Shown here: positions 20,647 to 62,291 of the stretch, piece after piece
Position numbering within the stretch: position 1 is the stretch's first letter
How the letters are laid out: each line of letters opens with the position of its first letter
From: Bacteroidales bacterium
GTDB taxonomy: Bacteria > Bacteroidota > Bacteroidia > Bacteroidales > UBA932
DNA: 64,000 bases
Assembly (NCBI GenBank): GCA_017458265.1
Contig: JAFTFV010000023.1
Location: forward strand, 27,916 to 91,915
Direction: 5' to 3'
Translations under genes and position numbers: made by a program
Notes under the pieces: generated by a model
What the model was told of the DNA's origin: nothing
Databases searched by the model: none
Seen by the model: the letters and a program-made list of their open reading frames with translations, nothing else

Positions 20647-20675
20647 TGTCATTTCGAGCGTAGTCGAGAAATCTC
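20647..20675 (+). repeat. TGTC-tagged palindromic repeat, copy 2
   Basis: TGTCATTTCGAGCGTAGTCGAGAAATCTC fills 29 of the 32 nt between the atpA stop and the atpG ATG. Confidence 0.88.
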
Positions 20676-21599
20676 ATGCCCACACTGAAGGAAATAAAAG
20701 GCCGCATCGCCTCCGTGCAGAGCACGCTGAAGATAACTTCGGCGATGAAGCTCGTGTCCTCTGCTAAACTCCGCAAGGCGCAGGCCGCCATCGAGGCCAT
20801 GAGGCCGTATCAGGAGCGGCTCGGCGCCATGCTGGAGCTTGCCGCGGGCACGAAACAGGGTGTTTCCGTGTCCGGGCAGCCTGAAATCGGCCCTTTGGAC
20901 ACCAAACAGGGTGTTTCCGTGCCCGGGCGTACCGTGGTCATCGCCATGGCGTCAAATTCGTCGCTCTGCGGCGGATTCAACGCCCAGGTCATAGCCAAGG
21001 CGAAGGAAGTGCTGCGTGATTGTCCCGGCGCTCAGGTCATCGCCATCGGCCGCAAAATGTCCGACGCCCTCCGCAAGTCCGGTGCCCCCGTGTACACCAC
21101 CTCCGCCCCCTCTGCCCTTTCGGACCACCCCTCCTACGCCCCCGTTTCTGCCATCACGGACACCCTCATGGCCGATTCCTCAGTAGGCCGGGTGCTCCTC
21201 GTGTACAACCACTTCGTCTCTACCGGCAAGCAGGTCCCCGTGGTGGAAACCCTGTTTGTTGCCACGGACGGAAAAGAGGCCGTTTTTCCGGCGGAAGGGC
21301 AGAATTCCGTGGCTGCGGACGGAAAAGAGGCCGTTTTCCCGGCGCCGGATGTGATCCTGGAGCCATCCCGTCAGGAGCTTTTGGAGGCGCTGTATCCAAA
21401 GTCCGTGAAGATAAAGTTCTTTGCGGCGCTGCTTGACAGCGCGGCGGCAGAGCATGCTGCCCGCACTGTGGCCATGCAGGCCGCAACCGACAATGGCGAA
21501 GACCTTCTTCAGGAACTCACGCTCCAGTACAACAAGGGCCGCCAGCAGAAAATTACCAACGAGATTCTGGACCTCGCAGGAGGTTCCCAGACTCAATAA
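20676..21599 (+). CDS. atpG: F1 gamma subunit containing two internal 17-aa tandem duplications
   Basis: ITSAMKLVSSAKL, SLCGGFN, AAEHAARTVAM, YNKGRQQKITNEI. Confidence 0.96.
   Translation: MPTLKEIKGRIASVQSTLKITSAMKLVSSAKLRKAQAAIEAMRPYQERLGAMLELAAGTKQGVSVSGQPEIGPLDTKQGVSVPGRTVVIAMASNSSLCGGFNAQVIAKAKEVLRDCPGAQVIAIGRKMSDALRKSGAPVYTTSAPSALSDHPSYAPVSAITDTLMADSSVGRVLLVYNHFVSTGKQVPVVETLFVATDGKEAVFPAEGQNSVAADGKEAVFPAPDVILEPSRQELLEALYPKSVKIKFFAALLDSAAAEHAARTVAMQAATDNGEDLLQELTLQYNKGRQQKITNEILDLAGGSQTQ
20847..20930 (+). repeat. In-frame 51-nt-period duplication in atpG (site 1)
   Basis: GGCACGAAACAGGGTGTTTCCGTGTCCGGGC...GACACCAAACAGGGTGTTTCCGTGCCCGGGC, encoding GTKQGVSVSG/DTKQGVSVPG. Confidence 0.85.
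21261..21344 (+). repeat. In-frame 51-nt-period duplication in atpG (site 2)
   Basis: GCCACGGACGGAAAAGAGGCCGTTTTTCCGGCG...GCTGCGGACGGAAAAGAGGCCGTTTTCCCGGCG, encoding ATDGKEAVFPA/AADGKEAVFPA. Confidence 0.85.
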
Positions 21600-25569: not shown

Positions 25570-27000
25570 CTACTGCCTGAAGCCACCGAAGAAGGGAAGT
25601 GACCAGGAGCGAAGCGAGAGATACCCAGTGCGTATGGCAAGGTGCATGAAGTAGGCGGCCATGAGGATATGGATGGCGGTTTCCGGTGTTGCAGAGCCGG
25701 TGGTGCCGGAAGCTGTACTGCCGGCCAGCGCTATGCCGATGAACCATACGGCAAAAAAGCCTACGGCGCAGAGGAGTGTGGAATTGCGCAGGTCCCGGCT
25801 TGCCGTTGCACCTATATAGATTCCGTCCCAGATGAAGGCGGGGCAACCGATAAGCGGCATCAGAAGCAGCCATGGAATGAACTGCCTTCCTGCATCGATC
25901 ACGGCCTGGTCCGATGTCATGAGGCCGAACAGCGCCCTCCCGCCAAGACCGTACACCAGCATGAACAGCGCGGTGACGCCAAGCCCCCAGAGGAAAGTCT
26001 GCCGCACAGTGGAGCGGACGCCGTCCCGGGACTTCTCGCCGATGAATCTTCCCGTGAGCGCCTCCCCGGCGTATGCAAATCCGTCTGTGAAGTAGCTGAA
26101 TATCATCAGCAGTTTCATGAGTATGGTGCTCACCGCCAGCATCAGGTCTCCGTACCTCGCGCTTATTACTGTAAAGCCGATATATACCGCAATCATCCCC
26201 ACCGACCGCAGAAACAGGTCCCGGTTCATCCTGAAGAACCCATCTCCGCCGGAAAAACGGCCGATTATCCGTCCGTGCGGCGGGAAGCACTGCCGGTAGC
26301 GGCGCAGCACGGCCGCCGTGCAGTACAGGAATCCGCTCCACTGGGCAATCACGGTGCCGATGGCGATTCCCCTGAACCCCAGCGGCGTCAGGGTTGCCAG
26401 CACTATGGACAGGACGATGTTGAGGAAGTTCACGAGTATATCGGCAGTCATGGGCCTCACGGAATCCTGCATACCGATGAACCATCCCTTGAAAGCGAAG
26501 AGCGAAAGCGTTGCCGGAGCCGCCCAGATTCGGATGTAGAAGTACTGCGATGCCAGATCACGCACCTCGGGAGAGCACTTCACCACCAGGAAAGCCCCCT
26601 GCACCACCAGCCACTGCACCAGTATAAGCGCCAGCCCCGACAGCAGGGCAATCCTCAGCGCCCGGAGGAGGATGGCACCGAGGGGAGATTCCTCGACTTC
26701 GCTCGGAATGACAGAGACTTCGCTCGGAATGACAGAAAGGTCGCTCGGAATGACAGACGTGGCTTTTCCGTAGGCTTGGGCGGTTAATCCGCCCGTGCCG
26801 GCACGGAGGAAGGCGAAGTTCCAGTAAAGAAGGTCGAAGAGCATCGTCCCAACTGAGATGCCGCCAATGAGCGCTGCCGATGAAAAATCTGCCGCCAGAT
26901 GCCCTGCAACGGCAATGTCCACCATGCCCACAAGCGGCACGGTGATGTTTGCCAGGATGGAGGGAACGGCAAGGCGGAGGATTTCCTTATGCAGTTTCAT
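25570..27000 (-). CDS. MATE family efflux transporter (DinF-like) with an in-frame repeat insertion
   Basis: LAVPSILANITVPLVGMVD, FLRAGTGGLTAQAYG, FTDGFAYAGEAL. Confidence 0.92.
   Translation of the reverse strand: MKLHKEILRLAVPSILANITVPLVGMVDIAVAGHLAADFSSAALIGGISVGTMLFDLLYWNFAFLRAGTGGLTAQAYGKATSVIPSDLSVIPSEVSVIPSEVEESPLGAILLRALRIALLSGLALILVQWLVVQGAFLVVKCSPEVRDLASQYFYIRIWAAPATLSLFAFKGWFIGMQDSVRPMTADILVNFLNIVLSIVLATLTPLGFRGIAIGTVIAQWSGFLYCTAAVLRRYRQCFPPHGRIIGRFSGGDGFFRMNRDLFLRSVGMIAVYIGFTVISARYGDLMLAVSTILMKLLMIFSYFTDGFAYAGEALTGRFIGEKSRDGVRSTVRQTFLWGLGVTALFMLVYGLGGRALFGLMTSDQAVIDAGRQFIPWLLLMPLIGCPAFIWDGIYIGATASRDLRNSTLLCAVGFFAVWFIGIALAGSTASGTTGSATPETAIHILMAAYFMHLAIRTGYLSLRSWSLPFFGGFRQ
26685..26755 (-). 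repeat. TGTC-tagged repeat, copy 3, with two extra 21-nt half-units, in frame in the MATE gene
   Basis: GAGATTCCTCGACTTCGCTCGGAATGACA + GAGACTTCGCTCGGAATGACA + GAAAGGTCGCTCGGAATGACA; peptide SVIPSDL-SVIPSEV-SVIPSEV-EESP. Confidence 0.9.
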
Positions 27001-27002
27001 GT

Positions 27003-27031
27003 GAGATTTCTCGACTTCGCTCGAAATGACA
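27003..27031 (-). repeat. TGTC-tagged repeat, copy 4
   Basis: GAGATTTCTCGACTTCGCTCGAAATGACA between the rsgA stop and the MATE ATG (2 nt from the ATG). Confidence 0.88.
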
Positions 27032-34457: not shown

Positions 34458-35108
34458 TCACTTGATGTGGGTGATGGAGGCGGAACTCCTTAATCCTCTG
34501 AGCTCCATGAGGACTCTGTCTATCTGCTTGGAGTCCTTGAATACAGTCATGAGAAGATAACCGTATGCGCCCCAGCTCTTTGTGTTCTCGATGATCTTGT
34601 AATCGACAGGGACTTCGGCATTGGAGAACGAACAGGTATATCCGTCTTCTTCCTTTCTGGTGCCGCGGAATTCAACCGACCAGTTCATGTGGCTGCCGAT
34701 TTCAGAATCGGCAAGGGTGGCGGTGATTTCAAAAGCGGTGGGGAAGGAGGCACCTTCCACGCTGAAATCGCCGTTGTAGTTTATTTTCCAGGCGTTTTTG
34801 CCTGTGACTTTCTTTATGGTGGTGCCAAGCAGCGAGCCTTCCCGGTTCACGGTCCAGACGGCATCGTCGGCAGTCAGGGGTAAGCCGTTGTTGGTATAGA
34901 AGTACTTGCCTATAACGCCGTCAGGATCTGTCTGGAGGGCGGTTTCCAGCTCTGAAAGCACTACGGAGACTCCATCATCGGCAATTGACAGCATATAGAG
35001 TTCCAGGGGGGTGGAACTTTCGTAAGTTGACGGGCCGAATGTGTCTTCGAACTTGTCGCACGATACCATGGCTGCAACGGCAGCAATCAATATGATTATC
35101 CTTTTCAT
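34458..35108 (-). CDS. Hypothetical lipoprotein
   Basis: MKRIIILIAAVAAMVS-C lipobox. Confidence 0.75.
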   Translation of the reverse strand: MKRIIILIAAVAAMVSCDKFEDTFGPSTYESSTPLELYMLSIADDGVSVVLSELETALQTDPDGVIGKYFYTNNGLPLTADDAVWTVNREGSLLGTTIKKVTGKNAWKINYNGDFSVEGASFPTAFEITATLADSEIGSHMNWSVEFRGTRKEEDGYTCSFSNAEVPVDYKIIENTKSWGAYGYLLMTVFKDSKQIDRVLMELRGLRSSASITHIK

Positions 35109-35110
35109 GA

Positions 35111-35710
35111 CTAAAACTCGTAACTGATTCCAAACCTTGCCATATAGGCTGTTCCAAGACCCATTTCAAAGATAAAATGAAGGTCCTTCTTTCCAAAGCA
35201 CAGGCCGAAGGGGACGACCTCCCAGGCGAATTGCTTCTGCTCCTCGTCTCCCCAGTTGGTTATGAACTCCATGCCCGCCGCAATGCGGCCATAGGCTTCG
35301 GCCTTGTAGCCGTCCTTGTAGCGGATTCTTGCCATGGGCATGACGGTAAAGTGGCTTACGCCCTGGGAGTAAAGATTGTTTGCATCTTCCTTATAGGCCA
35401 ATCCTTTCCGGATGGTCACCTCCTCGATAGAAGCCGTTGCGTCGATGCCAAGCTTGAGCCAGGACTTTACCTCGTACGAATACACCAGGCCCATGCCGAT
35501 GAAGCTGTCGCGATATTTCACGTCTTCATAAAGGTCCTTCAAAGTATTACCGCTGCTGTAATAATAATCATACTTTGCATAACTTGAACCCTCATTGAAG
35601 AAGATGCCGCTTACGGGACCGCCCATGAGAACTTCTATCTCATGCCGCCCCTGGGCGTTCATTGACAGCACTGCCGAAAGTGCCACCAGTATAGTAATTA
35701 TCCGTTTCAT
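35111..35710 (-). CDS. Outer membrane beta-barrel protein
   Basis: Start taken as MKRIITIL at 35710; signal peptide; C-terminal ARFGISYEF. The longer ORF call reads through the repeat. Confidence 0.78.
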   Translation of the reverse strand: MKRIITILVALSAVLSMNAQGRHEIEVLMGGPVSGIFFNEGSSYAKYDYYYSSGNTLKDLYEDVKYRDSFIGMGLVYSYEVKSWLKLGIDATASIEEVTIRKGLAYKEDANNLYSQGVSHFTVMPMARIRYKDGYKAEAYGRIAAGMEFITNWGDEEQKQFAWEVVPFGLCFGKKDLHFIFEMGLGTAYMARFGISYEF

Positions 35711-35778
35711 ACTGTTATAATGCAAAAATCCGGAAACCTTGCACCGGTGATGCACAAATTTAAGAATAAAAAAGGCAT

Positions 35779-35864
35779 GCCGTCCTTGAAAACGGGCAAT
35801 TTTAAGGACGAGGCCCCCTCTGAACGGCATGTCGTCCTTAAAAAAGGCCGATTTTGAGGACGGG
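35779..35864 (-). repeat. REP-like array C, 2 units, period 52, opposite strand
   Basis: Reverse complement CCCGTCCTCAAAATCGGCCTTTTTTAAGGACGAC...CTCGTCCTTAAAATTGCCCGTTTTCAAGGACGGC matches arrays A and B. Confidence 0.88.
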
Positions 35865-35904: not shown

Positions 35905-38900
35905 ATGGACAAAAAGACATTCAACAGATGTAATTGGATAGTCGCCGTTGTGGTGTTTGCAATTTCTGCGGCGACGTATCTTTCTACTATAGAGCCCACG
36001 GCCAGTTTCTGGGACTGCGGCGAGTTCATTGCGTCATCCTACAAGCTTGAGGTGGGACATCCCCCGGGAAACCCGGTGTTCCAGCTTATCGCGAGGTTCT
36101 TCACCATGCCCTTCGGTGCCGATAAGGCCGCCGTTGCGGTGAATGCCATGAACGGAATCCTGAGCGCACTCACCATTTTCTTCCTGTACCTTACCATTGT
36201 GTTCTTTGCGAAGAGGGTGGTGGGAAGAGATTTCTCGACTTCGCTCGAAATGACAAAGGGGACGCTCGAAATGACAAAAGGGCAGGCGATTGCGATAATG
36301 GCCTCGGGCGCTGTGGGAGCGCTGGCATATACGTTCTCGGATACGTTCTGGTTCAGCGCGGTTGAGGGAGAGGTGTATGCGATGTCGTCGCTGTTTACGG
36401 CGCTGGTGTTCTGGGCGATGTGCCGATGGTATGAGACGGCGGACCAGCCCCATGCCAACCGCTGGATAGTCCTCATCGCGTTCCTGATGGGCCTTTCCAT
36501 CGGCGTTCACCTTCTGAACCTCCTTACCATCCCGGCCTTCGTGTTCATGTACTACTACAGGATGAACGAAGACAGGAAGCTGCCTTTCAAGAAGCTCCTG
36601 GGCATTTTCCTCATCGGCGTGGTGATAGAGTTCCTGCTGGTGTACATCTTCATACCGTACCTTCCCAAACTGGCTGCGTTCTTCGACCGCATATTCGTGA
36701 ACGGATTCGGCCTGCCGTATAATTCCGGTGCCGTTTTCTTCATGGTGGCTCTGCTCGGCCTTTGCTTCTGGGCGCTGTTTGCAACGCTCAAGAAAGGCAA
36801 GGTGTTCTGGAACACGGTTACGCTTTGCGTCACAACACTGGTGATGGGCTTCTCGCTCTTTGCCATAGTTATCATCCGCTCCAGCGTGAAAACGCCCACC
36901 AACGAGTACCAGCCCGATAATCCCTACACCCTGGTGCGGTACCTCAGCCGTGAGCAGTACGGCTCCACGCCGCTTCTCTACGGCCAGTATTACGACGCTC
37001 CCTATGACCTCAAGGTTACCAAATACTGGGCCCCGCTTGACGGCAAGTACGTGAAGGCCGACGGCCCCGCCGATGCAGACTATCGGCCCGAAGGAAAGAT
37101 GCTCTTCCCCAGGATGTGGTCATCGGCAGACCCCCGCTACGTGAACTTCTATGAGCAGTATACCGGCGGCAAGGGTACGAAAGTGAGGGGCGCGAAGCAC
37201 CGCAAGCCGTCTTTCGGCGCAAACCTCGCGTTCTTCTTTGACTATCAGCTGAACTGGATGTACTGGCGATATTTCATGTGGAACTTCGTAGGAAGGCAGA
37301 ACGAGATCCACAGCCCCACGCCCGGAGAACTTTTCTACGGCAACTGGGAGAGCGGCATAGGGTTTATCGACCAGCTGCGCCTTGGAGACCAGAGCAATGC
37401 TCCGGAGCCGCTCAGGAACAACAAGGGCAAGAACCACTACTATTTCCTGCCGCTGCTGCTTGGGCTTATCGGCCTTGTGTATCAGTTTGACAGGGACAAG
37501 AGGGGCAGCTGGCTGGTGTTCCTGATGTTCTTCATGACGGGCATCGCCATCGTGCTGTACCTTAACCAGCCGCCTTACCAGGTAAGGGAGAGGGACTATG
37601 CCTATGCCGGGTCGTTCTATATGTATGCCATATGGATCGGCCTTGGAGTTGCCGCGCTGTACGAGTGGATAAAGGACCTTGTCAAGGCTCCCAAGGCCGA
37701 AAAGGCCGTGGCCATTGGCGTTGGTGTGCTGTGCCTTGGCGTCCCCGCCCTCATGGCCGAAGAGAACTGGGACGACCATGACCGCAGCGGCCGATACACC
37801 GCCGTGGAAATGGCAAAGAACTACCTGAATTCTGTAGGGAAGAACGGCATCCTCATCACCCATGGAGACAACGATACCTTCCCGCTGTGGTATGCACAGG
37901 AGGTTGAGGGCGTGAGGACCGATGTCCGCATCGTGAATACCTCCCTGCTCGGAACAGACTGGCATATCGACCAGATGAAATGGGCCGTGAACGAGAGCGC
38001 TCCGCTGCCTCTCACCGTGTCCCAGCGCCAGTACCTCTACGGCAACAACGAGTACGTATATATAACGTATGACGACGGTTCGCCCATGTACATCAAGGAT
38101 GTGATGGACGTGTTCAAGGACCCCAAGATGAAGGTTCCGCTGGAGAACGGCATGAAACTGGACTTCATCTGCGCCCGCAACATAGTCATCCCCGTGAACA
38201 AGGAGAACTGCCTGAAGTACGGCATCGTCCCTGAGAAGTTTGCCGATGAGATCCCCTCCGAGATAATGCTCACCATGTCCAAGGACAAGAACTATCTCAC
38301 CAAGCCGGAACTCTTCCTTCTGGACCTCCTTTCCAACTACCAGTGGGACAGGCCGATCAACGTCCTGAACCAGGGCGGGGACCTCAATATCGGCATAAAG
38401 GACTACCTTATGTATGAGGGCTACTCCTGCAAGATCACTCCCATCAAGAACAAGGTGGGAACCACCGATGCGGGAAAGGTTGACGCACTTGAGCTTTACC
38501 GGAAGATGAACGAGGATTACAGCTGGAAGGCCATGTCCTCCAAGGGCTGGTTCGTGGATTATCAGAACATGTACACATTCCTTGGCGTAATGAGCCAGAG
38601 GCAGCTCTTCCTCACGACGGCCAATGCCCTTATAGACGCCGGAGAACCTGAGAAGGCCCTTGAGATGCTGGACAAGCTCCAGGTTTGTTTCCCGGAGGAG
38701 AATTTCCCTCTGGAAACCATCAGCGTGGGATTCTCGGGCAATGACTACATGGTTGCACAGCTCATCGAGAACTACTACTACCTGGCCGCTTCAGGACTTC
38801 TGGCCGATGAGGCTTCCGCCGCCGCAAAGGCTTCTGCCACCTCGCTGGCAGAACGCTTCGGCGGCCAGCTCCTTGACTGCGCCGGTTTCTACCTGCAGTG

Positions 38901-39054
38901 GGGCAACTACGGCAGCGGCGAATTCGAAACCGCCGGCCGCGTCCTCCTCTACCTTGCCGATGTGTGCAAGCAGTACGGCGACGAGGCTCTCTCCAAGACC
39001 CTGGAGGACCAGTTCACCGAAATGCTGGAAGTGGCCAAGGCAAGCGCTCAGTAA
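35905..39054 (+). CDS. DUF2723-domain integral membrane glycosyltransferase (GT-C-like)
   Basis: EPTASFWDCGEFIA, EVGHPPG, FWFSAVEGEVYA, RERDYAYAGSF, HGDNDTFPLWY. Start MDKKTF at 35905, after a TATATTTG promoter element at 35891. Confidence 0.85.
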   Translation: MDKKTFNRCNWIVAVVVFAISAATYLSTIEPTASFWDCGEFIASSYKLEVGHPPGNPVFQLIARFFTMPFGADKAAVAVNAMNGILSALTIFFLYLTIVFFAKRVVGRDFSTSLEMTKGTLEMTKGQAIAIMASGAVGALAYTFSDTFWFSAVEGEVYAMSSLFTALVFWAMCRWYETADQPHANRWIVLIAFLMGLSIGVHLLNLLTIPAFVFMYYYRMNEDRKLPFKKLLGIFLIGVVIEFLLVYIFIPYLPKLAAFFDRIFVNGFGLPYNSGAVFFMVALLGLCFWALFATLKKGKVFWNTVTLCVTTLVMGFSLFAIVIIRSSVKTPTNEYQPDNPYTLVRYLSREQYGSTPLLYGQYYDAPYDLKVTKYWAPLDGKYVKADGPADADYRPEGKMLFPRMWSSADPRYVNFYEQYTGGKGTKVRGAKHRKPSFGANLAFFFDYQLNWMYWRYFMWNFVGRQNEIHSPTPGELFYGNWESGIGFIDQLRLGDQSNAPEPLRNNKGKNHYYFLPLLLGLIGLVYQFDRDKRGSWLVFLMFFMTGIAIVLYLNQPPYQVRERDYAYAGSFYMYAIWIGLGVAALYEWIKDLVKAPKAEKAVAIGVGVLCLGVPALMAEENWDDHDRSGRYTAVEMAKNYLNSVGKNGILITHGDNDTFPLWYAQEVEGVRTDVRIVNTSLLGTDWHIDQMKWAVNESAPLPLTVSQRQYLYGNNEYVYITYDDGSPMYIKDVMDVFKDPKMKVPLENGMKLDFICARNIVIPVNKENCLKYGIVPEKFADEIPSEIMLTMSKDKNYLTKPELFLLDLLSNYQWDRPINVLNQGGDLNIGIKDYLMYEGYSCKITPIKNKVGTTDAGKVDALELYRKMNEDYSWKAMSSKGWFVDYQNMYTFLGVMSQRQLFLTTANALIDAGEPEKALEMLDKLQVCFPEENFPLETISVGFSGNDYMVAQLIENYYYLAASGLLADEASAAAKASATSLAERFGGQLLDCAGFYLQWGNYGSGEFETAGRVLLYLADVCKQYGDEALSKTLEDQFTEMLEVAKASAQ
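36227..36276 (-). repeat. TGTC-tagged repeat, copy 5, plus one 21-nt half-unit, in frame in the DUF2723 gene
   Basis: GAGATTTCTCGACTTCGCTCGAAATGACA + AAGGGGACGCTCGAAATGACA; peptide RDFSTSLEMT-KGTLEMT. Confidence 0.9.
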
Positions 39055-42336: not shown

Positions 42337-42387
42337 GGGATTTCTCGACTTCGCTCGAAATGACAGAGGTGATTGCTCGAAATGACA
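42337..42387 (-). repeat. TGTC-tagged repeat, copy 6, plus one 22-nt half-unit (intergenic)
   Basis: GGGATTTCTCGACTTCGCTCGAAATGACA + GAGGTGATTGCTCGAAATGACA. Confidence 0.88.
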
Positions 42388-61709: not shown

Positions 61710-62291
61710 ATGGCAGTAAAGTCCAATCTTACCAACATGGTTCTGGTGCTCGGCCTCACCTGCCTGCTTTGCTCGGCTATCCTCGGCGGTGCATACGTGC
61801 TCACAAAGGAGCCCATCGACGCAGCTGCAGTGGAGAAGACCAACAAGGCAATCGCCCAGGTGCTGCCGCACTTCACTGATGCCGAGTACAATGCCGAACA
61901 AGGCTACTACACCGCAAAAGACGGTGAGAAGCTCGTCGGCTATGCAATTGAATCCACCACTGTGGGCTTCGGCGGAAACCTCAGCCTGATGGTGGGCGTC
62001 ACTCCGGACGGAATCGTCTACAACACTTCCGTGCTGTCACATTCCGAGACTCCCGGCCTGGGAGCAAAGTGCACCAGCGACGGGAAGTTCGTCAGCCAGT
62101 GGAAGGGATTCGACCCCTCAGTCAAGAAACTCATCGTCAGGAAAGACGGCGGTGACGTAGATGCAATCACGGCTTCCACAATTACTTCCCGCGCCTATGC
62201 GCTGGCGGTGGAGAACGCCCTTGAGAAGTTCTCTGTCATTTCGGGCGAAGCCGGGAAATCTGAAAATATAGGAGGACAAGACAATGAGTAA
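61710..62291 (+). CDS. rnfG: Rnf complex subunit G
   Basis: GFGG, HSETPGLG, DAITASTITSRA (FMN-Thr). Confidence 0.94.
   Translation: MAVKSNLTNMVLVLGLTCLLCSAILGGAYVLTKEPIDAAAVEKTNKAIAQVLPHFTDAEYNAEQGYYTAKDGEKLVGYAIESTTVGFGGNLSLMVGVTPDGIVYNTSVLSHSETPGLGAKCTSDGKFVSQWKGFDPSVKKLIVRKDGGDVDAITASTITSRAYALAVENALEKFSVISGEAGKSENIGGQDNE
62234..62261 (+). repeat. TGTC-tagged repeat, copy 7, in frame in the rnfG 3-prime end
   Basis: TGTCATTTCGGGCGAAGCCGGGAAATCT; peptide SVISGEAGKS. Confidence 0.75.

Follow-up and report, generated by a model that had tools for sequence, protein, structure and literature searches.

A TGTC-tagged repeat as a recent, polymorphic insertion in a loop of a TMEM260-like glycosyltransferase gene of Bacteroidales

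Introduction

How does a short DNA repeat that is scattered over a bacterial genome come to be translated as part of an intact membrane enzyme, and does the enzyme make use of it? This question is raised by a 64,000-nt stretch of a Bacteroidales genome (GenBank assembly GCA_017458265.1, contig JAFTFV010000023.1, positions 27,916 to 91,915 of the forward strand; hereafter, the window), in which a TGTC-tagged repeat lies in frame within a gene on the plus strand (35905–39054). As judged from the open reading frame (ORF) and its translation, this gene encodes an intact 1049-aa TMEM260-like (DUF2723) membrane glycosyltransferase of the GT-C fold. We found that the repeat in this gene is a recent and still polymorphic insertion and not an ancestral motif, because near-identical alleles lack the unit and the number of half units varies among those alleles. 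We consider it likely that a selfish hairpin repeat of the CGTC/TGTC class has here turned into coding sequence of a GT-C glycosyltransferase, as a recent, tolerated passenger in one of the loops of the protein.

Repeat Units Within the Glycosyltransferase Gene

A full TGTC-tagged hairpin unit, GAGATTTCTCGACTTCGCTCGAAATGACA, occupies positions 36227–36255 on the plus strand and, read directly from the sequence, encodes (R)DFSTSLEMT, residues 108–117. It is followed by the purine-rich spacer AAGGGGA (36256–36262, plus strand), which corresponds to the 3′ tail of most copies and encodes K118, G119, and part of T120. Next comes a partial unit, or half unit (36263–36282, plus strand), which is made up of the 3′ arm and head, CGCTCGAAATGACA, and the tail AAAGGG, and encodes (T)LEMTKG, residues 120–126. 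This second CGCTCGAAATGACA, at 36263–36276, repeats the last 14 nt of the unit, and the half unit as a whole forms a 21-nt tandem repeat with 36242–36262, which a repeat search reported as two direct repeats of 20/21 nt with a spacing of 21 and 95% identity (family D1). In the frame opened by the ATG at 35905, the stretch from R108 to T124 reads RDFSTSLEMTKGTLEMT (RDFSTSLEMT-KGT-LEMT) and is flanked by hydrophobic stretches at residues 76–102 and 128–143. The in-frame TGTC repeat with its 21-nt half-unit duplication is therefore as the initial annotation of the window had described it in sequence, frame, and residues (108–124), and so is its opposite orientation relative to the copy in a MATE pump gene: the latter gene lies on the minus strand and its copy reads SVIPSEVEES, whereas the DUF2723 gene, on the plus strand, gives DFSTSLEMT. 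Eight contigs on record encode exactly this protein, and near-identical alleles come from other assemblies, so that the repeat is not a one-off assembly artifact.

Alleles and Orthologs of the Glycosyltransferase

A homolog search that covered 5.8 billion proteins returned P0005 as the closest cluster representative. This protein is repeat-free, is 99% identical to the window protein over 1014 columns when the loop is masked, and has VVVKKDVMTTAQ where the window protein has VVGRDFSTSLEMTKGTLEMTKGQ. The repeat-free alleles are 96.5–99% identical elsewhere, and their loop reads VVVKKDVMTTAQ or VVVRKDAMTTGQ; 18 orthologs of the same genus that also lack the repeat peptide have unrelated loops of 7–17 residues. 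The ortholog alignment thus revealed no conservation of the loop in repeat-free relatives, as the initially proposed origin from a repeat element would predict. When the DNA was compared with that of a repeat-free allele, the flanks had 2–5 mismatches per 100 nt, while the loop measured 61 nt vs. 28. The net gain at the loop is 33 nt, or 11 codons, with ~28 nt of the ancestral loop replaced.

The number of units differs among the closest alleles. Within one 90% cluster, one half unit is present in P0001, P0129, P0131, and P0132 (the window form, on its eight contigs, and three close variants), two are present in P0127 and P0128, which have two perfect 21-nt copies where the window allele has one, and P0005, P0133, and P0135 have no unit. 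A tree computed after masking of the loop places the alleles in one well-supported clade, with the repeat-free P0005 among the repeat-bearing alleles and the more distant, repeat-free P0135 outside them. The simplest reading is that of a species-level clade in which presence and absence of the unit are polymorphic and have been shuffled by recombination, and in which partial units change in 21-nt steps.

The Host Protein and Its Loop

The host protein matches Pfam family PF11028 (E=3.4e-69), and its profile matches the structure of the human O-mannosyltransferase TMEM260 (9rql, E=2.5e-14). An AlphaFold model built from 72 homologs, with a mean predicted local distance difference test (pLDDT) value of 78, has a fold that resembles the GT-C enzymes PglB and Pmt1/2/4. 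It consists of a helix at residues 72–106, a coil at 107–124 (pLDDT below 50 over 110–120), and a helix at 125–143 in the region of interest; the repeat peptide is predicted by this model to be a disordered segment between transmembrane helices TM2 and TM3. Human TMEM260 has only ~5 residues at this position. GT-C enzymes begin in the cytoplasm and have a conserved acidic motif in the first external loop. Based on this architecture and the positive-inside rule, the TM2–TM3 loop most likely faces the cytoplasm, because the acidic motif FWDCGEF (35–41) lies in the first external loop and K103 and R104 follow TM2.

Repeated Colonization of the Same Loop

Among 117 homologs in which the loop could be delimited, its length ranged from 10 to 50 residues, and signatures of TGTC-type units were found in 44 loops. 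The units there occur in a forward, window-like form, in a reverse form (LSSRPSE..GEIS), and as head-to-head dimers. A second subfamily, of FPVKPGMT type, is found in the loop with 7-residue partial-unit arrays of its own. DNA of a same-genus genome, G010 (G000 in our locus labels is the 2.13-Mb genome studied here, and the other G numbers are same-genus genomes), carries in this loop a reverse-oriented unit with a compensatory ATCTC/GAGAT stem.

Such a distribution may mean that the TM2–TM3 loop actively draws insertions through its sequence or structure, beyond merely tolerating them, for example because leftover ends of older units serve as homology anchors or because a TGTCAT-like target is present. 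Loop state changes at least 33 times on a tree of 116 homologs, all 42 matches to the repeat-peptide signatures fall in this loop and 0 elsewhere in the ~1050-aa protein, and the loop houses units of different subfamilies and of either orientation, together with head-to-head dimers and arrays of half units, as would be expected of a hot spot. However, no other segment of the protein varies as much in length, so that tolerance alone predicts that units accumulate in it. Both the junctions and the full-plus-half architecture recur in a distant lineage, P0011, and repeat-free sister alleles have ATGAC(A/T) and a purine-rich run in register with the head and tail of the unit, yet the likeness between the unit and repeat-free loops did not reach significance against shuffles, the typical empty loops of other lineages (KPGKDGEYSLPQ type) lack unit-like ends, and the empty counterpart of an intergenic doublet at 42340 in the window lacks TGTCAT. 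We therefore regard active targeting as a possibility that deserves attention but is unlikely, and favor the accumulation of tolerated passengers.

Two narrower candidates were tried and rejected. One took repeat-free loops to be remnants of older units (p = 0.27–0.29 for the alignment score vs. shuffles), and the other took the TGTC head to be a pre-existing target that lies outside the inserted DNA (no such head is seen at the empty counterpart of the 42340 doublet). Separately, a KADAP-type peptide (..KADAPAG..) occurs in seven more loops (P0028, P0038, P0041, P0050, P0053, P0080, and P0114) and probably derives from another repeat family.

The Repeat Family in the Window and the Genome

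The window contains 10 occurrences of the core 14-mer of the unit, with up to 2 mismatches allowed, where 0.58 are expected, and none of 100 shuffles reached 10. Genome-wide, we counted 135 core units at 97 loci, and 85 full units. Whole-ORF coding scores placed 42 of the 85 full units within 33 ORFs, in frame and flanked by coding signal to either side; a classifier based on 240-nt flanks proved too noisy, missed the glycosyltransferase locus, and was replaced by the whole-ORF scoring. The class of units that abut a start codon includes shadow ORFs (e.g., opposite atpA), and no weight was placed on it. Bacterial genomes are typically close to 90% coding, and the intragenic proportion of about one half is below that of random insertion and far above what is usual for repetitive extragenic palindromic (REP) sequences.

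Five of the six frames of unit plus tail are open and one forward frame meets a TGA, in keeping with the initial claim of open frames on both strands. The accompanying claim, that one element seeds two unrelated peptides, was an understatement: six types occur among the 42 in-frame intragenic loci, namely VISSEVEKS-type (18), EIS..RND, comprising long variants (10), RFLDFARND (5), DFSTSLEMT (5), CHFERSREI (3), and SFRAKSRNL (1). The two orientations of the in-frame units are near balance (22 vs. 20). All 18 of the host ORFs that were scanned match Pfam families in the repeat-bearing frame, and they include MurB, DapF, MetRS, UvrA (with two units), MnmA, a Mur ligase, a class A penicillin-binding protein, the CCA-adding enzyme, GH2, GH43, DsbD, MBOAT, and YfhO. 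The proposal that the element is tolerated in loops of membrane proteins thus holds for the glycosyltransferase, with its coil at 107–124 between helices, but not as a generalization, since the hosts are ordinary conserved genes and mostly encode soluble housekeeping enzymes. In uvrA (G000:C12:29592-32510; L037) there are two in-frame TGTC units, one of them with a 24-nt partial unit, which echoes the published position of uvrA as a frequent host of intragenic REPs.

Inside genes, the periods of all 21 partial units are 21, 24, or 27, while outside genes only 9 of 18 are multiples of 3 and the rest are 19, 20, 22, 23, or 29. The restriction to multiples of 3 inside genes alone is the expected signature of selection against frameshifts. 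Partial units are always in the same register, comprising an arm, the head, and a 6–10-nt purine-rich spacer, with the other arm seen once only. This fixed register makes random slippage an inadequate explanation; a hairpin-linked process, or a nuclease that cuts at a constant spacing from the head, could possibly account for it.

The longest array of the genome (G000:C11:98758-98912) has a full unit and six partial units, with five periods of 21 followed by one of 23, and a second array 2.6 kb away (C11:96102-96194) has three partial units with a period of 22. A 1705-aa ORF (G000:C25:207-5321; L041) contains three in-frame repeat loci within ~160 codons, of which two are SVIPS(A/E) unit arrays and the third is a long-variant unit in a head-to-head pair.

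Elsewhere in the window, an ATTCC/GGAAT variant with one full and two half units (26685–26755, plus strand) is read in the opposite-strand frame of the MATE pump gene as the peptide SVIPSDLSVIPSEVSVIPSEVEES, and a single unit abuts the start of that gene (27003–27031, plus strand). Another single unit (20647–20675, minus strand) lies within the short gap that precedes the ATG at 20677, and a diverged unit with a CCCGG/CCGGG stem variant lies at the 3′ end of an ORF (62234–62262, minus strand). The intergenic doublet mentioned above (42340–42387, plus strand) consists of a full and one half unit with a period of 22, just after a terminator-like hairpin. It is absent at the syntenic site (L029:17700-17760) of a sister genome with ~96% DNA identity, which has no TGTC unit in the 23 kb of it that were examined. 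Just upstream of the glycosyltransferase gene, a minus-strand ORF (35111–35830) encodes 239 aa in the window and 197 aa in a sister contig (L021). The region 35105–35800 has 13–28 mismatches per 100 nt relative to that contig, where the genes around it have only 0–8, and the ORF is a locally hypervariable or exchanged gene. In another same-genus genome, a TGTC unit (G002:C108:16820-16846) precedes the start of the orthologous DUF2723 gene by ~25 nt, which indicates that the neighborhood of this gene, beyond its loop, attracts units.

Anatomy of the Unit and Its Classification

On the minus strand, the unit in the glycosyltransferase gene reads as a TGTC head, an arm ATTTC.., a GAAG loop, an arm ..GAAAT, and a CTC tail. 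The layout on the TGTC strand is 9+4+9 (ATTTCGAGC, GAAG, TCGAGAAAT), with G.A mismatches among the inner positions. In a column profile built from 54 aligned genomic copies, all 54 have the GACA that is read as TGTC on the opposite strand; in this gene it lies at 36252–36255. Paired columns change together (T39/C15 with A39/G15; C51/T3 with G51/A3), and the outer five pairs form compensatory stems, which are ATTTC/GAAAT, ATTCC/GGAAT, and ATTCT/AGAAT in this genome and ATCTC/GAGAT, ATCCC/GGGAT, and ATGTC/GACAT in relatives. The conserved 3-nt tail reads CTC vs. a consensus CCA (columns 0–2, G37/A51/G54 of 54, plus strand). Columns 29–35 are G/A-rich, and the spacers of other arrays are likewise purine-rich. 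Head-to-head pairs were found at C2:75013/75040, C2:87874/87913, C25:1943/1982, C26:3274/3293, and C52:20635/20687, with singletons and direct half-unit arrays being commoner. No Rfam family reached its gathering score in the window; a snoRNA match near the unit is a chance one.

A CGTC/TGTC-tagged REP superfamily was described by Di Nocera, De Gregorio, and Rocco (2013, BMC Genomics 14:522; PMC3733652). It includes dRS3 of Neisseria and RPE-4/RPE-6 of Rickettsia and has been recorded in Bacteroidetes. Its criteria are an unpaired CGTC (or TGTC/CCTC) end, a stem of 8–9 positions starting from complementary A-T residues, and a loop of 4–5 nt; the elements have a consensus CCA tail, are dispersed in high copy number, and usually pair as head-to-head dimers. 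Intragenic copies are known (RPE-4/-6 in Rickettsia, with uvrA among the hosts), and no dedicated transposase was found for CGTC REPs (PMC3733652). Based on its sequence features, we file the present element as a divergent member of this CGTC/TGTC-tagged (SRM-like) class, SRM standing for the Ssn-related motifs by which the class is now tied to single-strand GIY-YIG nucleases of the Ssn type.

Candidate Enzymes for the Spread of the Family

In Neisseria, the 94-aa GIY-YIG single-strand nuclease SsnA binds hairpins of the NTS/dRS3 type and cleaves them upstream of the head, and repeats typically flank the ssnA gene in the arrangement SRM-ssnA-SRM (Chenal et al., 2025, Nat Commun 16:2388; PMC11893778). 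The genome studied here has one small single-domain GIY-YIG gene (G000:C41:19-330, minus strand; L050). Its 104-aa product matches PF01541 (68.5 bits, E=1e-18) and has the UPF0213 proteins 1zg2 and 1ywl as best solved relatives; the only other GIY-YIG match in the genome is a 599-aa ORF of UvrC-like length. The small gene is bracketed by inverted 26-nt TGTC units (C41:14-39 and 346-371), of which the downstream one encodes the last residues of the nuclease and its TGA stop, and the contig ends 13 nt past the unit. Homologs in G012 and G033 are flanked by TGTC units on both sides, and that in G002 on one side; the upstream units in G012 and G033 are of the 27-nt ATTTC subtype, as in the glycosyltransferase gene. 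The repeat is present in 8 of 25 genomes of the genus, namely in 4 of the 4 with the nuclease gene and in 4 of the 21 without it (one-sided hypergeometric probability 70/12650 = 0.0055, a figure that overstates the association given the kinship of the genomes and the incompleteness of metagenome-assembled genomes). The spread of the family probably depends on the single-stranded hairpin form and on this Ssn-like GIY-YIG nuclease.

One could go further and view the partial-unit arrays as footprints of an Ssn-like nuclease, which would cut the single-stranded hairpin at a constant distance upstream of the head, with repair then duplicating the stretch from the cut to the hairpin loop; protein loops such as TM2–TM3 would in that case be true hot spots. 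We consider this extension improbable. If it is true, protein loops would grow and shrink time and again through an in-frame minisatellite driven by a nuclease.

Alternatively, the family may be moved by a RAYT-like transposase (IS200/IS605-type Y1, HUH) instead of the GIY-YIG nuclease, in the manner of the GTAG REPs and REPINs, whose mobilization by RAYT transposases is summarized in PMC11893778 and PMC3733652 (after Nunvar, 2010; Bertels and Rainey, 2011; Ton-Hoang, 2012). The substrates of Y1 transposases are hairpins in single-stranded DNA that carry a 5′ tetranucleotide, and the genome has four divergent HUH-type genes encoding 308–391 aa (G000:C57:36952-37896, C37:9872-10798, C61:22281-23456, and C14:53513-54508), which are weak matches to Y1_Tnp, the best with 23.9 bits; a fifth weak match looks unrelated. 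TGTC units flank none of these five matches, and the single unit within 3 kb of one of them lies in a neighboring gene; the GIY-YIG gene has units on both sides in three genomes of the genus, and Di Nocera et al. (PMC3733652) tied no transposase to CGTC REPs. We thus find it doubtful that a Y1 transposase moves the family, and retain the nuclease as the preferred candidate.

Discussion

In the explanation that we prefer, in which the repeat is a selfish element tolerated as a passenger, a full 29-nt unit with its purine-rich tail and a 21-nt partial unit would have replaced ~28 nt of the ancestral loop. The resulting peptide would have no function of its own and would persist because the unit is free of stops in five of six frames. 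Survival of such events would be filtered, as only insertions and expansions by multiples of 3 would pass selection and as the loop would accept the extra length.

Several observations count against this account and against the role of the nuclease in it. The insertion is not clean, as 61 nt replace 28 and the unit is not accompanied by flanking codons of the ancestral loop, and a simple cut-and-paste model therefore does not fit; moreover, ATGAC(A/T) is already present in the repeat-free alleles, equally far from the downstream anchor, a feature that none of the models considered accounts for. When the unit was folded by free energy on either strand, as DNA or as RNA, it did no better than shuffles (z = +0.4 to +1.6), so that the hairpin is argued from co-variation and from a likeness to GAA-loop mini-hairpins, the C-GAA-G loop region resembling the d(GCGAAGC) mini-hairpin, which is very stable. 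Hits to the published degenerate SRM motif numbered 20 in the genome vs. 11–18 in Markov-simulated genomes, which is no enrichment, and the motif matched neither the three unit variants tested nor the unit in the glycosyltransferase gene. The subtype that flanks the nuclease gene (26-nt ATTCT/AGAAT) differs from that unit, and G010 has 20 units and no detected nuclease gene in an assembly that is 91% complete. Finally, the presumed neutrality of the peptide is a weak point.

This last point leads to the question of whether the element has been co-opted, in that the extra residues or the variation in 21-nt copies tune the enzyme or its interactions at the cytoplasmic face, or the hairpin acts in the mRNA or DNA, for example by offering a nuclease site and thereby restricting recombination or transformation at the glycosyltransferase locus. 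Near-identical alleles do carry 0, 1, or 2 half units in frame, units persist in many lineages, and in Neisseria the NTS units and SsnA modulate natural transformation (PMC11893778). Repeat-free alleles, however, coexist in the same clade, and the segment is predicted to be disordered, with human TMEM260 having ~5 residues there. In addition, the peptides in the same loop are wholly different depending on orientation and frame, which argues against selection on the amino acids. Co-option is in our view quite improbable here, and the passenger explanation is to be preferred. The idea of an ordinary tandem duplication or assembly artifact unrelated to a mobile repeat can be dismissed as highly implausible, because, although slippage could make a 21-nt tandem repeat alone, the unit is one of 85 near-identical copies, half-unit arrays elsewhere are in the same register, and the protein is found on eight contigs and in allelic forms from independent assemblies.

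That repeats may lie in frame within genes is already known in print from Rickettsia and other bacteria. What is added here is the allele series, the recurrent colonization of one loop, and a tested association with a nuclease in Bacteroidales. The alleles offer a view, at near-population resolution, of a selfish hairpin becoming protein, and the same loop of one enzyme family has been colonized many times, by different subfamilies and in both orientations. The pairing of CGTC-type hairpins with small GIY-YIG nucleases would be extended to rumen or gut-type Bacteroidales, the units of which a search with the published SRM motif would miss. For annotation, loops of this kind are unfit as conserved motifs or domain boundaries, and for protein engineering they mark sites that accept 10–40 extra residues.

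Comparison With Known Systems

The element shares features with four known systems. Like the GTAG REPs, it is a short hairpin whose tetranucleotide head is unpaired and whose stems co-vary, and it occurs in high copy number and has expanded in particular lineages. In contrast to them, its head is TGTC, no RAYT gene is flanked by units, and singletons predominate where GTAG REPs form inverted doublets.

The Rickettsia palindromic elements (Ogata et al., 2000, cited in PMC3733652) are likewise palindromic repeats in frame in intact conserved genes, where they add residues to loops and are absent from orthologs. RPE-1 is ~100–150 bp long and confined to Rickettsia, and the present case differs in its 29-nt unit, its free-living or gut-type Bacteroidales host, its partial-unit arrays, and its polymorphism within a species-level clade.

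The resemblance to the Ssn/SRM system lies in an oriented hairpin with a CGTC-type head, in a gene for a single-domain GIY-YIG protein of ~100 aa between inverted units, and in the co-occurrence of gene and repeat within the genus. On the other hand, the published SRM motif fails on these units, translated intragenic units are left undiscussed in PMC11893778, and the best solved relatives of the nuclease, a candidate member of the Ssn clade (cd10448), are UPF0213 proteins.

With the CGTC/TGTC REPs, the element has in common the unpaired TGTC head, the A-T start of the stem, the 9+4+9 layout with a GAAG loop, head-to-head dimers, in-frame intragenic copies that include uvrA, and the lack of a unit-flanked transposase gene. 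It also has a short unpaired tail, which reads CTC in place of CCA, and its stem has only 5–6 Watson-Crick pairs plus G.A mismatches. About half of its copies are intragenic, far above most species in PMC3733652, and head-to-tail half-unit arrays, rare in that survey, are common here.

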